NCBI GenBank assembly: GCA_964016885.1 | Contig: OZ024740.1 | Span: 347,262,001-347,326,000 of the forward strand | DNA from: Eledone cirrhosa | Lineage: Eukaryota | Reading direction: 5' to 3' | Length of the DNA stretch: 64,000 nt | Shown: piece by piece, positions 47,864-55,407 of the stretch | Position numbering within the stretch: position 1 is the first letter of the stretch | Layout of the letters: each line of letters starts with the position of its first letter | Program-made: the position numbers and the translations under genes | Notes under the pieces: model-generated | Databases searched by the model: none | What the model was told of the DNA's origin: nothing | What the model saw: the letters and a program-made list of their open reading frames with translations, nothing else

Positions 47864-49376
47864 TAAAGAGAGAGAGGGGGGAGAGAGAATATCATATATA
47901 TAACTCATACATACGTTCATACAGATTTATATATATATGCATATACTTTTGAGTCTATATATGAGAGGCAGCGTGCGTATGTTTTGCCGTACATGTATAT
48001 ATATCTGATGTACGAATAAGTTTCAATGACGAGGGAGGAATATAGACCTTGTATTTGAAAGAATTTCACATATGGGTAAGTATGTATGTTTAGGCGTTCG
48101 TGTATTTATATATATATATATAAAGATGGTTTGTACACAGACATTCAATGAAGAACCGTGCACTGGAGAATTCCACACCCTCGTCAATGAAATCTGCCAA
48201 CTTAAAGACAAAAACCTTGATTACAATATTAGCTGGTCGAAATTAGCGGCCGCAAAGGCCTATAGCAGCGGTATGTCCCATTGCGAGCTCTGCAACCTTG
48301 AATTGCTATATATCTTAAGGTACGATAAAATGCTGCTTCACAGCAAAATAGAAAAGTCAATTTTCTGCAGACATAGGATTGCTACTAAATTTACGAGATT
48401 TAAACCACCGTGATACGAACCAGCATCCCCAAACTTAATGGAAAATCAGTTAGAATTTAACGTATGAAATCCGCATTCTCACACAGACCACCTCAGAACC
48501 ATAATCCAGCCTCACTACATCTATACCACCAAGATGGGGAAGTAATATCTACAGATATCTACCAATTATCATGTCAGTCCATAAATCAATCTAGCCTTTG
48601 CTGTTGTTTATTCTTTCGGACCAAACAATTATATATACATATCTCATATTAACACCCATGATCTCTAACAGATTAACTTAATTCTAAGTACATTATCTTA
48701 TTACCCTTACAGTCCTTAGAATTCTTATTTTCTTATTTTCTTCTTATTACTAGTATGATCATCTCAATGTACCTTATCCCTAATTTGATTCATCATGTTC
48801 TCTATATATTTACCATGCATATTTTGTTGTTGATTTATTGTCTTAATTATACGCTATTTGTCATCGAAGTTGTGAAAACTAAATACCCATGATTAGAACT
48901 GGCAATCCCAACATTTAGAATAAGCCACCTAAACCTTAAAATACTGAATCTACAATTTCACTTAATACTACCTAAGAACCATATATCTTTATACACTCAC
49001 TCTATCAATATAACTAAGTTGATATGTCAGACCATAAATCAATCTCCGGTTTATTGGTAGCGTGCCTTTAGACCCACAGCACACTTGTATCTAGATAACT
49101 CATAATTGCACTTAAAGGGACAGATTCCAAAAATCTGACTCTGGGTACATTTTATTAGTTATCTCTTCATCCCTCAAAAACTACATCTAAAGTAACCTAT
49201 AGTAGTTTTCACATGTCAACTTCATACATATGTATCAAATCAGTTCGGTTACCATGTTAGTTTTATCATTTTATCATTATATTTTATTTTTCACTTATAT
49301 TGATGTTATTAATTTAACTATTCAGTATCTAGTTATTTTTTATTGATATTATTGTTCTGGTCTAATACCACTCCTC

Positions 49377-50618: not shown

Positions 50619-50742
50619 CATATATATATATATATATAAATATTTCGTATCTCCAAAGAAATACAGTTTTAGGAAGCCGTAGCTATGCAAACATCGGAGG
50701 GCTAACGCCCTCTGGTGATGTCCAGCAGAAGCAAGGGGGACA

Positions 50743-50786
50743 ACCGTCTATGCATTTCAGGCTTAACTGGCCTTCGTCAGGACGGT
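50743..50786 (-). ncRNA. Intact minimal type I hammerhead, family E
   Basis: ACCGTC-CTGACGA-AGGC-cagttaa-GCCT-GAA-ATGCAT-A-GACGGT: 6-bp stem I, 4-bp stem II, palindromic ATGCAT. Confidence 0.85.
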
Positions 50787-51063
50787 CCCTCCCATCGCTT
50801 GCAACTGCTGGACTAGAAGGCAGGCGAGAATATATACTTTTCTTGTCTGTGTAAATGAGGTGATTAATCTCATTTGCATATGAAGCTGCATAAGTTGGCT
50901 CAACTTATAATTTTAAAAAATAGGATTTCGCTTCAAGCATAGCTTTATACAATATGTATAAATATTTCGTACCTCCAAAGAAATACGGTTTTAGGAAGCC
51001 GTAGCTATGCAAACACCGGGGGCTAACGCCATCTGGTGATGCCCAGCAGAAGCAAGAGCGACA

Positions 51064-51107
51064 ACCGTCTATGCATTCCATGCCTAACTGGCCTTCGTCA
51101 GGACGGT
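51064..51107 (-). ncRNA. Mutated second family E hammerhead
   Basis: ACCGTC-CTGACGA-aggccagttaggcat-GGAATGCAT-A-GACGGT (GAAA changed to GGAA). Confidence 0.65.
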
Positions 51108-52463
51108 CCCTCCCTCCGATATATATATATATATGATGGATTTTCCCGTCGCAGACGACAAATGCCATCTCACCTAACTCGAAACTGATAGCGTCTTTAT
51201 CCACAGATTAGGAAGTCCTTCTACGGAGGTAGCTTTTTATTTAGAGATTCCAGACTTTGTTATTTTTTTCCATGTAATTGATGCTATCCTTATTATGACC
51301 TGATCTCATTCAAGCCTAGAGTAAATTCTTTCGTTTTTTAATTTCTCCTTCTTCATAGTCCCTTAAAACTAAGTGGCTTCATGCTTTGTCATGGATTTCA
51401 TGAGAAAAAAATGTGTTTGTTTGTGCAGGGGAAGGTATGTGTATTGGTATATGGGCATTCTGCATGATCTCGAGTATACATGTATGAATTTTTGTTCAAA
51501 GGTGGGGTGAAGATGAAGAGCAATATTATATGACTTTATGAGTGAAGTAAATGGATTGTCTTTAAAGGAAATTAAATAGAAACTTGTACCAGGAAATGAA
51601 ATTGTGTTTTGAGCAGACGAATGTGTACAGTTATGGAGGAGGGGAGGAGAAATGTATTCATATATGTATGTAGAAGATTAGATACATATTAAATATAAGG
51701 AGCTTAGACAAAATTCTACAAGATACATTTGTAATAGTTTTGGAATAACTTCAAAAATCGAATGAAACAAAAATATGTTGAATATCACATACCCTAGGGT
51801 ATTCAATGGTATAGTCCTTTCATGTGGATGCATCGTGTCTCCGAATTCCATAACCAGAATTGTTGCAAAATTATCACGTGGTTAAAGTTGTCCTATCTTA
51901 CACGAACAATAGTGATATTTATGACTGGTTACTTCATCATGTATATGGTTAGCAAAATAACTCCCGATCTTCCAATATACGAAGGATATGTGATCAAGTG
52001 AATATTCTTGAAAAGTTAATAATTCCTTATCTAAATCATAGCCCTAAGATCTTCATCAGACGCCACCAGTTGAAAACATATCAGATGAAACACGGAAAGA
52101 TTTTATTATCATCTTGCAAAATAAATCAATATATGACTGTATAGTATACAGTCATATACAGAAAGGTTTGGGAACCACTGCTGTATACTAAGAGCAATCA
52201 ATTTGTTTTCTATTTCCCGCCTTGTTTTTCGTCCATCATGTAATACTGCCGTTTCCTATTGCCTCTGTTGTATATATAGTCCCATGTACGTCAATACACA
52301 TACATTTTACCATTCAGAGGTTTTTTTAAAAGCCCAACTAACAGACTAATTGTATTCAGTTAAATACGACGTAAGCACATGTTACTACCTCATATATATA
52401 TATATATTTGGGGATGGTCATATTTGTTTCAACACACGATTTCATATAAGAATTCTTGCAAAA

Positions 52464-52499
<36 letters not shown>

Positions 52500-52502
<3 letters not shown>

Positions 52503-52730
52503 CTTTCACCGTATTTTTCACTAAAGAAATTTTTAGCCTGATAATGGGGTTTAGAACCCTCAGATAAATGGAAAAAGATGAGAATTGACGCACGTCAATA
52601 CTCATCTTTTTCCATTTATCTGAGGATTCTAAACCCCATTATCAGGCTAAACATTTATTTAGTCAAAAATACGGTGAAAGCTATTCTATTTTCTAATTTC
52701 AAACCAGCTCACTGTTTCAAAACATACTTT
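52500..52730. repeat. Fold-back palindrome (centre about 52591) of family F, homologous to 55190-55325
   Basis: agctttcaccgtattttt..ctaaagaaat..tagcctgata.tggggttt is mirrored. The plus arm has CTGAGGA (52620) ... GAAAGCT. Confidence 0.85.
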
Positions 52731-52933
52731 TATATATATATATAGGGAGAAAAAAACGATTATTAGGTAGAAAAATATTTTATTCCCGTTATCTTTTTAT
52801 TTTTTCTAGGTTAGAAAATGTTTAAAACAGATTATTTTACTTTGTGTGAAGTGTCAAAGAACTAATTAATTTATTTATTAAATACCAATAGCATTGATTT
52901 ATTTATTTATTAATTTATTTATTTACTAATTAT

Positions 52934-52971
52934 CAATTACCGGTTTCAGCATTTTATGCATTTTCAAATTA
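52934..52971 (-). ncRNA. Minimal hammerhead with U3-A8 core in the Neptune 3' pLTR
   Basis: Minus: tAAT-TTGAAAA-tGCAT-aaa-ATGCt-GAA-AC-cg-GT-A-ATTg. Confidence 0.72.
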
Positions 52972-53363
52972 TGTGAGTGGGTGAGAAAAAAAGGAATTTG
53001 TGTTTGTACAAAATGTAGAAGAGAAAATAAGGTGATGTTAAACATGTTAAGGTAACGGGAAAGAAAGAATAATATTATTTACAAACATGGTTTTTGAAGA
53101 CAAGCAGTCCAAACATTGTTTTTAGGAGAGATCGCTTGAAATTGTTCATTCTTGGAGGAGGCAAATAGCCGTGCGGGACTGGGTGTGTTTTCCTTTTTAG
53201 AGAATTAATATGCAGGGGGAGGTAATTCATAGTGGTAGGGTAGGAGAAAGAGAGGAGAGGGGGTAATTCATTTATATAAGAAAAAGGAATAGGTAGAGTG
53301 TAGGGATGTAACTCTTTAGAGAACATAGAAATGTGAGTCTAGGGGTCATTGTTCATTCTAGTT

Positions 53364-54384
53364 TTAGTTTAGTCCGAAGTTTAGTTCATTAAGTAGAGTT
53401 TGGAATGTGTTATTGAAGTACGTTTCCTTATTAGTAGGTTGGATGAAAGAAGCGTTGTCTATGAATTTGTAAATGGGGAAAATTCTAAAGTTTTGTAGTT
53501 GGTTAGGTGCACAGTTGGTGATATGTTCACTAAGAGCAATCTTTCTGTATTCCTGTATTTTGATTTGTGGTCTATGGACGGTCATAAGTTGTCGGAGGCT
53601 GTTTTTTGTTTGTCCTATGTAGTACTCTCGACAACCTGAGCAGGTCAAAACATAGATTAGGTTTTCAAATGCACATGTAAAGTTGTATTTAACTGTGAAA
53701 TATTGTCCTTGTTTAAAGTGGAATGTTGAACCTTCTATTAGATTTATGCATATACCACAGTTGGACCTTCCGCATTTTTTTACTGTAGGGTTCATTGTGA
53801 GGGTTGGTTGGATTTTGGCTTGTGTGAGAATGTTTTTTTATGGATTTAGGTTGTCGTTTGCTTTTTATGATGTAATGTGTTTGGAGGATTTTATTCATTC
53901 TTGAGTCTCTTTTTAGTAAAGGAATGTTCTGGAGGATGGTGTCGCATGCCTCATTCTTGAGGGGGTTGTGTGTGGAGATGTATGGTAGAGTTTTCTGTTT
54001 CGGTTCATTCCTGGGTTTGGGGCGTCTAAGTTCCTGGATGTTGAGTTTTAGGGCACGTTGGAATCCATTGTTGATTAGAGATGGTTTGTAATTTCTGTTG
54101 ATAAGAGTGTTCTTTAATTCTTCTAACCGTGTGTAGCATGTGTATTTATCTGAAACTATTGTGCAGATCCTTTTGGTTAGGTTATAAGGAATTGCCATTT
54201 TGTTATGGCGAGGGTGGCACGAGTTAAAGGGATAATATTGTTTGGGGTCTGTGGGTTTATAGTATATGTCTGTTTCTATTTTGTTGATTGTTTTCTTGAT
54301 CTGGATGTCAAGGAAAGGGAGTTGTTCATGGCTGTATTCCATTGTAAATTGAATGTTTGTGTTGAGTCCATTTAGAAGTTTTAA
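53364..54384 (-). pseudogene. Frameshifted PLE RT C-terminus, Cys-rich linker and GIY-YIG endonuclease
   Basis: LNGLNTNIQFTME..LPFLDI..TDIYYKPTD..NSCHPRH..IPYNL; KCGRSNCGIC; NLIYVLTCSGCREYYIGQT..VH..EH (CCHH arrangement); LN near the end. Confidence 0.9.
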
Positions 54385-54411
54385 ACTCAATACATAACAG
54401 AGTTTAAATAT

Positions 54412-54456
54412 TTCCTGATGATTTCCTCCGTATGAAACAGTTCTAGTCCTGTAGAA
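54412..54456 (+). ncRNA. Minimal hammerhead, family B, within a fold-back unit (54385-54478)
   Basis: TTC-CTGATGA-tttcctccgtat-GAA-ACAG-ttctagtc-CTGT-A-GAA; stem II is decayed. Confidence 0.65.
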
Positions 54457-54475
54457 GCCATTTCTATATTAAATA

Positions 54476-54528
<53 letters not shown>

Positions 54529-54635
54529 TATTGAAGTTTCCGTTGAAAATTGAAAAAGTCATAGATGTGAAGAGTGCTCTATGTAAGTACCAGAGCTAAA
54601 TTTAATGTATAATAAACAATACAATATAATTACCT

Positions 54636-54698
54636 CATTACCAGAGGTTTCCCGAATAAGACGAATACGAAAAACGTCCTCATTCGTTCATCGGACAA
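54636..54698 (-). ncRNA. Hammerhead-like motif downstream of tRNA-like copy 1
   Basis: Minus: CCGATGA-aCGAATGAGGACG-ttttcgtatt-CGTCTTATTCGg-GAAAC-ctctg-GTA; long stem II, U4C change, weak stem I. Confidence 0.55.
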
Positions 54699-54760
54699 GG
54701 CAATTTAAAACATAGTGAAATATTTGAAAAATCTCCTCAAAAAAGGCAAAAATTGACTTT

Positions 54761-54831
54761 TGCCGTACATGGGAGTCGAACCCACATCTTTGGTTATCCA
54801 GACCACTGTGCTACCATTACACCAATACACA
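54761..54831 (-). tRNA. tRNA-like sequence (repeat-borne pseudo-tRNA), copy 1
   Basis: 71 nt. A-box TGGTGTAATGG; D-stem GTGT/GCAC; anticodon arm TGGT-ctGGAta-ACCA; T-arm GTGGG-TTCGACT-CCCAT; 5 of 7 acceptor pairs; TTTTT shortly downstream. Confidence 0.65.
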
Positions 54832-54886
54832 TCCCATCTCCTTCCATTCGAATTAGAAGCTATGAACTTAGCAAGTGAATAATAAA

Positions 54887-55351
54887 CAAGCAAATTATAA
54901 ACGTAAACATGTAAATATGTTTTTGAAACGGTGCGCGAGTTTGAAATTAGAAATTAGAAATTATAAGCTTTCACAGACTAAAGACATTTCTAGCCTGATA
55001 GTGGGGTTTATAACCCTCGGAGAAATGGAAAAAGATGAGTGTTGCCGTACATGGGAGTCGAACCCACATCTTTGGTTATCCAGACCACTGTGCTATTCGA
55101 ATGGAAGGAGATGGGATGTGTATTGGTGTAATGGTAGCACAGTGGTCTGGATAACCAAAGATGTGAGTTCGACTCCCATGTACGGCAACACTCATCTTTT
55201 TCCATTTCTCCGAGGGTTATAAACCCCACTATCAGGCTAGAAATTTCTTTAGTCTAAAATACGGTGAAAGCTTATAATTTCTAATTCCTAATTTCAAACT
55301 CGCGCACCGTTTCAAAAACATACTTACATGTTTACGTTTATAATTTGCTTG
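54887..55351. repeat. Fold-back palindrome of family F (arms about 54887-55095 and 55136-55351)
   Basis: Reverse-complement arms of about 210 bp; right end abuts (TA)n. Confidence 0.9.
55117..55187 (+). tRNA. tRNA-like sequence, copy 3 (partial copy 2 at 55043-55095 on minus)
   Basis: Same sequence with one T-stem change; followed by acactcatcTTTTT. Confidence 0.65.
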
Positions 55352-55353
55352 CT

Positions 55354-55407
<54 letters not shown>

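Follow-up and report, generated by a model that had tools for sequence, protein, structure and literature searches.

The window analysed here is a stretch of 64,000 nt from Eledone cirrhosa, whose genome (3.0 Gb) is rich in microsatellites. Between 54,479 and 55,404 it holds a fold-back insertion of a tRNA-headed repeat beside the 3' end of a different element. We mapped the fold-back to the consensus of subfamily F1, whose numbering (unit 1-290) is used throughout, and found a single insertion with two arms. The plus arm begins at the fold-back apex at 55095 with the end of the linker (55095..55116, unit 269-290), which is the 3' strand of a 16-18 bp terminal stem, continues through a complete tRNA-like head with A and B boxes (55117..55187, unit 1-71; Rfam RF00005, 38.6 bits at 55117-55185), and ends with a body (55188..55354, unit 72-238; 98.7% identical to the F1 consensus). 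This body includes a run of five T residues, T5, at 55197-55201 within the terminal stem and a conserved stem, recognized from the fold, pair changes and end classes, that encloses the short 3' end A (55261-55266 / 55305-55310). It stops at the long 3' end B in a (TA)n target (55356-55404). The minus arm starts in a 5'-truncated head (55043..55095, unit 19-71; 16.2 bits, the Rfam tRNA gathering threshold being 29 bits), passes through the body and linker of one unit (54832..55042, unit 72-290, less 8 nt) and finishes with the whole of the next head (54761..54831; 38.1 bits at 54764-54828, called tRNA-Ser(GGA) by ARAGORN). The two arms are 94-98% complementary. An initial annotation had described three tRNA-like copies at these positions, a fold-back whose plus arm runs out at (TA)n, and an A box, a B box and an oligo-T after the cloverleaf (T5, unit 81-85); all of this is borne out. 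Its unit of 282 nt corresponds to the true spacing of the two minus-strand heads, but the full unit is 290 nt long and the 8-nt deletion accounts for the shorter distance.

The minus arm ends at unit 71 rather than at end A and abuts, over a 4-nt microhomology, an element that we call H1 (54530..54749, minus strand), which lies outside the tRNA-headed unit and is followed at its 3' end by its own (TA)n (54479..54526). H1 is the 3' end of a separate Penelope-like element (PLE) family. Its minus strand matches a descriptor for a type I hammerhead at 54628-54705, with a U4C core, a 9-bp helix II and a predicted cut after 54639. The hammerhead-like motif with a long stem II noted earlier downstream of copy 1 is therefore real but belongs to this other family, which is abundant (1,974 first-look candidates) and lacks the tRNA in all 24 of the other loci examined. 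Five fetched H1 copies have about 2 kb of upstream sequence in common, and in other copies an RT/GIY-YIG-type ORF lies upstream, matching HTH_animal/GIY-YIG clusters in the ESM Atlas at 0.95-0.97 while Pfam returned nothing. H1 came to lie beside copy 1 by chance, as the 3' end of a different PLE, and insertion with a target deletion accounts for the junction as well as a template switch does. Having been seen once, the junction does not identify a driver, and H1 as either the driver or a second type of unit was set aside as unproven. PLE remnants occur elsewhere in the window. A 5'-truncated, frameshifted fragment with the C-terminal part of the RT and GIY-YIG lies at 52900-54470 (minus strand), separated from H1 by (TA)n; one of three pieces of the window's PLE fragments matches Pfam GIY-YIG, at an E-value (7e-4) that does not pass the cut-off. 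A 127-residue frame at 48030-48413 (plus strand) presumably resembles the C-terminus of a PLE endonuclease. Pfam gave no match for this frame, nor for the PLE fragment of locus L325.

The tRNA-headed unit is a large repeat family, with at least four subfamilies, thousands of copies and a unit length of 260-290 nt. The consensus sequences that we built from genome-wide copies (F1, 290 nt; F2a and F2b, 260 nt; F3, 268 nt) are 86-97% alike. Exact-pattern searches returned 5,002 matches for a body 16-mer found in F1 and F2, 2,838 for an F3 13-mer, 3,530 for a tail motif and 1,323 for a head 18-mer, with 0-2 matches for reversed-pattern controls; copies that lack the head are hence in the majority (1,323 head versus 5,002 body matches). 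The same body is found at 30 of the 30 best-scoring head loci, a sample biased to near-identical copies, for which reason we relied on position-ordered exact-pattern searches. In these, 27 of 30 head matches are followed by the body of this family, with truncation, deletion or recombination accounting for the remaining three. The head is thus no ordinary independent SINE found mostly apart from this body. Median identity to the consensus is 97% for F1 (n=22) and 94% for F2 (n=42). Contigs of sequencing run X1 give the same picture as the genome; a 158-nt contig of depth 2.4 in run X4 is evidence for nothing. A second family member in the window is an F2 fold-back at 52.5-52.7 kb, composed of an inverted arm (52499..52593, minus strand, unit 64-157, 95.8% to the F2 consensus) that ends at end A in (TA)n and a forward arm (52592..52740, plus strand, from unit 66, 94.7%) that ends near B in (TA)n. 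Its apex coincides with the 5' breakpoint hotspot described below. The initial annotation had reported the body motif without a tRNA here; a copy is indeed present, but it is a 5'-truncated member of the 260-nt subfamily F2, which carries the same head elsewhere. Two other loci deserve mention. In an F2 arm at L162/L104 (G000:C1 near 26.47 Mb) the family sequence gives way at the B box to another, probably SINE-like sequence, a label that is inferred. At L303 (G000:C1 near 26.11 Mb) a complete F3 insertion is present twice, together with its TA flank, in head-to-tail copies spaced by 243 nt, pointing to duplication at the DNA level.

We mapped the ends of the repeat in 70 loci taken from the start of the body 16-mer list, of which 9 overlapping loci were dropped, leaving 61 loci and 82 arms. 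The 3' ends of these arms fall at A in 37 cases (about 160-176 in F1, about 155-173 in F2), at B in 42 (about 226-240 in F1, about 204-216 in F2) and elsewhere in 3, and 74 of the 82 arms reach (TA)n. Among the 38 fold-back junctions in the 61 loci, 32 combine one A end with one B end, six have one other end, and neither A+A nor B+B occurs; TA flanks are present on both sides in 30 of the 38. Poly(A) is absent, with A6 in one of 106 3' flanks. F2 dimers number 93 in the genome, and the family therefore displays both structural marks of PLEs, inverted 5'-truncated copies and partial tandems. PLE insertions have been described as carrying an inverted 5'-truncated copy, a partial tandem and a tail at one end, often in (TA)n (PMC8557442), and the tail has been explained, in the account consulted, as the gap between two internal RT start sites, a feature termed 'unique to PLEs' (PMC11167929). 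The A-B offset of about 45-65 nt exceeds the published PLE tail of 30-40 bp; the neighbouring H1 family has 76 nt. Because the insertion anatomy fits the published pattern, the tRNA-headed unit is in all probability mobilised by a PLE, and the genome-wide ends lend strong support to one of the two identities proposed at the outset, a PLE-dependent SINE-like element, which would borrow Penelope rather than LINE enzymes. No autonomous PLE with a common 3' region was found in about 1 Mb of family loci (nhmmer, TA-adjacent ends; the matches listed are family members only) or among 30 tail-motif matches. Many other (TA)n-terminated families lie in the flanks of these loci, some with perfect hammerhead cores (20 distinct matches), and different elements accumulate in the same TA tracts.

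The A and B boxes of the head are identical in the four subfamily consensuses, and the head is 91-100% conserved between subfamilies as compared to 86-97% for the whole unit. Depending on the subfamily the anticodon reads GGA or CGA, so decoding is not conserved; the variable arm is short, the acceptor stem of F1 has a bulge, and the constant anticodon and isotype features of a functional tRNA gene are lacking. The earlier judgement that a functional tRNA-Ser is unlikely is therefore upheld. Alignment with the tRNA-Trp(CCA) of the genome, the only parent tested, gave 39 of 72 identical positions for F1 and 40 of 72 for F2, where the shuffle maximum is 39, and the matches concentrate in the D arm and T loop, so an origin of the head from tRNA-Trp can be suggested only tentatively. 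Matches to the tRNA-Trp D-arm pattern lie in large clusters (G000:C4 277.41-277.44 Mb and 353.39-353.49 Mb), and all four of the cluster loci that we scanned hold tRNA-Trp(CCA) genes.

The initial annotation had also read the C(C/T)GAGG...GAAAGCT motif of the body as hammerhead-like. Rfam detected no hammerhead in 54530-55355 at E-values up to 10 (0 among 17 Rfam matches, of which those to miRNAs are fold-back artefacts), a search that is insensitive by itself since it also missed the hammerhead of H1. A strict descriptor returned no sense-strand match in the four consensuses; it also failed to find the proper fold of H1 and two further sequences intended as controls. A relaxed descriptor, modelled on the minimal PLE hammerheads as presented in PMC4209133, finds H1 and a hammerhead in 50620-50800 and misses two other controls in the window; with one extra core mismatch allowed, it gave no sense-strand match in the four subfamily consensuses and one weak antisense match in F3, which is at background level (8 of 100 shuffles). 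Folding predictions, moreover, place the GAGG stretch within a hairpin and the G-A of 'GAAA' at the closing end of a stem formed with the tail. That stem has changed from U-A to C-G by a double change in F3 and from G-U to G-C in F1, and F3, with 2,838 matches, reads GATA where the other subfamilies have GAAA. We also considered, by eye, an extended hammerhead in which the terminal stem would act as helix I, but discarded it for want of a helix II. On these models the unit very probably has no working hammerhead, and the first of the two proposed identities, a tRNA-headed retrozyme, fails in silico because the consensus offers nothing competent to cleave. The GAAAGCT stretch is possibly the relic of a dead hammerhead, as it precedes end A. 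The stem around that end recalls the stem-loop that has been reported as the start site in a PLE of anole. Elsewhere in the window, a direct repeat (50630-50793 and 50952-51114, spaced 321-322 nt), likely another PLE end or a retrozyme-like tandem, has in its copy at 50630-50793 a clean minus-strand hammerhead of type I, with a perfect core, a palindromic helix III and a 7-bp helix I.

The 5' breakpoints are as unevenly distributed as the 3' ends. Thirty-five of the 51 arms that reach unit 68 stop at 55-68, where 4.0 are expected from the hazard at 73-137. A further, head-anchored sample comprised 77 arms in 63 loci once 7 overlapping loci had been removed, with L159 counted twice and L238 three times; here 11 of 71 arms, two of which have a common apex, start at tRNA +1 plus or minus 3 (2.6 expected), and 17 more stop in the next upstream head. 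Because the arms of one fold-back share an apex, P values for these hotspots are overstated. The first hotspot is situated immediately 3' of A58 (unit 56), where a methylated adenosine would stop reverse transcription, although the T-arm/acceptor helix alone could give this stop. The second suggests, from breakpoint positions, RNA 5' ends at +1, formed either by Pol III initiation or by an RNase P cut. Both hotspots carry AT/TG microhomology, which, shared with TA/TG repeats, may add to them by helping joining. Taken together, the pile-up in the 3' half of the tRNA and at +1 makes it likely that synthesis of the template RNA begins at the tRNA, whose fold is retained. T5, which is conserved, lies ten bases after the head and would normally terminate Pol III. 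Copies that span +1 to end B nevertheless exist (L169, L245 and L255), so T5 must be leaky if +1 is the Pol III start. Moreover, 56 of the 77 head-bearing arms reach past +1 by more than 9 nt on the upstream side; a simple monomer transcript could account for them only with the help of read-through, jumping or a circle, and the linker beyond end B can be inherited only by copies that cross +1.

Support from structure for the fold of the unit is modest. T5 pairs with the linker in the 16-18 bp stem that closes the body, in which two G-U pairs have become A-U in some subfamilies, and the body stems show one double compensatory change and four one-sided changes that keep pairing; circular-fold z scores, however, are -1.1 for F1 and -2.2 for F2, seven predicted pairs are broken in some subfamily, and the alifold covariation term (+1.25) is not favourable. 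The predicted fold sets position 1 beside the last base. F1 and F2 are never mixed within one insertion (0 of 62 inverted pairs), and rare variants are common to arms (18/173) and to tandem units (18/136) about tenfold more often than to random pairs of the same subfamily (126/13,042), so that both arms and tandem units derive from the same source lineage. Most copies are shorter than two units, and the number of units falls roughly geometrically, from 5,002 single motifs (F1 and F2) through 93 F2 dimers to 4 F2 trimer matches in 3 loci; this agrees with multimers made by read-through, with jumping inside one molecule between its juxtaposed ends, or with a circle. An array of 25 F2 units (L238:912-7830; G000:C1 near 131.46 Mb) is bounded by an inverted arm ending at A on one side and by a B end on the other. 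Its units differ by 9% from the array consensus and share mutations in a mosaic, the top pair having 17 in common where the 95% point of the null is 10. This hierarchical sharing indicates that the array grew at least partly as DNA and leaves a rolling-circle origin unsupported, and L238 is a transposon turning into a satellite. Loci L257 and L259 are ambiguous with respect to a rolling-circle reading.

These observations are best accommodated if the repeat is a hammerhead-less, tRNA-headed, non-autonomous PLE of 260-290 nt, which we consider likely. Its template RNA would quite probably be initiated by Pol III, beginning at tRNA +1 and occasionally reading through T5 (unit 81-85), which would be paired in the conserved stem. 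A PLE protein would nick both strands of (TA)n, and RT would start at the internal sites A and B, one for each arm; the polymerase would usually stall in the folded 3' half of the tRNA, possibly methylated at A58, and the two cDNAs would be joined head to head over short microhomologies. Copies that pass +1 into the linker would rebuild tandem source copies. To this scheme as a whole, with Pol III transcription from the head and copying into (TA)n by a PLE enzyme, we assign somewhat better than an even chance on the sequence evidence.

The most serious competitor, although we think it unlikely, also invokes PLE mobilisation and lets the tRNA mainly replace the hammerhead. Host RNase P, acting at every +1, would divide read-through multimers into monomers, whose ends, held by stacked stems, would then be jumped or circularised. 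Breakpoints at +1, the juxtaposition of position 1 and the last base in the predicted fold, a T5 that speaks against long Pol III transcripts, the roughly geometric unit counts (5,002, 93 and 4) and the private variants of tandem units all agree with such processing, yet perfect A and B boxes are kept, the bulge in the F1 acceptor stem tells against it, and the 25-unit array fits DNA-level duplication, not one rolling-circle event. Processing at +1 also figures in a broader proposal that we regard as speculative, in which the family would be a novel class of parasitic RNA that is to PLEs what SINEs are to LINEs, and its tRNA mimic would serve as Pol III promoter, as a signal that replaces the hammerhead by directing RNase P to +1 (yielding a nicked or circular monomer) and as an RT barrier, by fold or m1A58, that sets the size of the fold-back. 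It is improbable that the head is a mere passenger, a tRNA pseudogene captured by a miniature PLE derivative whose source copies are transcribed by read-through and in which it only hinders RT. Most copies do lack the head (1,323 versus 5,002 matches) and its likeness to tRNA-Trp is only 40/72, but it is conserved at least as well as the whole unit, its boxes are invariant, and starts at +1 are in excess.

Two readings fare considerably worse. A retrozyme with a minimal hammerhead in each unit, cutting as a dimer, could point to the CUGAGG stretch of F2 and to GAAAGCU with its palindromic AGCU 15-25 nt before end A, the site of PLE hammerheads; given the absence of sense-strand matches in the four consensuses and of a helix II, the involvement of the G-A of 'GAAA' in a stem with a compensatory change, and the GATA of F3, we hold it to be very improbable. 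Hardly any more credible is a LINE-dependent SINE, or a DNA fold-back element, that merely sits in TA repeats. The family does have SINE-defining features (non-coding, shorter than 700 bp, a tRNA-derived head with A and B boxes), and the flanks of its loci commonly contain ORFs that we take to be those of RTE-like LINEs. Reverse transcription by a partner LINE, however, is not indicated: the ends are of PLE type, with (TA)n masking any target duplications, and the strict pairing of A with B, the 3' ends inside the unit, the lack of poly(A), the variable apex and the head-to-tail permutation contradict this reading already at the level of end statistics.

A hammerhead-less, tRNA-headed PLE would show that a hammerhead is unnecessary for PLE cargo. 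Its 260-nt natural substrate, with both start sites and both stop hotspots mapped, offers a template of minimal size for studying how PLEs initiate at two internal sites and form fold-backs, a mechanism that is poorly understood. Families of this kind are probably catalogued as 'unclassified SINE' or tRNA pseudogenes. In one octopus annotation, as reported, 893 unclassified SINE families are recently active (PMC13282606). Hammerhead mutants of a PLE are reported still to insert in vitro, hammerhead activity being dispensable there (PMC11167929). We found no description in the literature of a tRNA-headed element with PLE ends; Repbase/Dfam, subscription papers, supplements and the 1994 octopus SINE paper lay outside the scope of this search and may contain the family.

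The nearest precedents overall are Sm-alpha, MRC1 and the TRIMp3 elements. Sm-alpha of schistosomes is transcribed by Pol III and is the nearest precedent for the idea of a tRNA-headed retrozyme. Together with Sj-alpha it is described as a SINE-like repeat derived from a tRNA (Gln) and tied to the world of hammerheads and retrozymes, but Sm-alpha has an active hammerhead (PMC2770079) and our unit none. Metazoan non-LTR retrozymes likewise have units of a few hundred bases with a self-paired fold and a proposed PLE dependence, and they are organised in tandem (PMC7229834, PMC7761336, bioRxiv 10.64898/2026.07.22.740005). According to these accounts, however, their definition requires every unit to contain a type I hammerhead (bioRxiv 10.64898/2026.07.22.740005), and they are said to lack promoters (PMC7761336), whereas the tRNA-headed unit has A and B boxes, lacks the hammerhead and mostly occurs as fewer than two units. 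MRC1 of Chlamydomonas, which depends on Chlamys, is also non-coding and partially head to tail, with PLE insertion anatomy and microsatellite targets (PMC8557442), and a short Penelope of heliconiines is another non-autonomous PLE (PMC6685494). The passages that describe these two elements mention no tRNA head, unlike the unit studied here (PMC8557442, PMC6685494), and MRC1-type elements generally have 3' sequence in common with an autonomous family, for which the unit showed no equivalent in about 1 Mb of its loci. Like the unit, tRNA-derived SINEs as defined in SINEBase are non-autonomous, shorter than 700 bp and equipped with Pol III boxes in a 5' tRNA module, but they depend on partner LINEs (PMC3531059), whereas the unit has PLE-type ends, internal start sites and no poly(A). 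The TRIMp3 elements Cassandra, Helenus and Ajax are reported likewise to place the promoter of a small-RNA gene in a non-autonomous element that uses non-LINE machinery, although as LTR elements (PMC10886601), and the tRNA-headed unit would be their PLE counterpart. With SINEs defined as parasites of LINEs, and with small-RNA-headed parasites of LTR elements known, a tRNA-headed parasite of PLEs would fill the missing cell.
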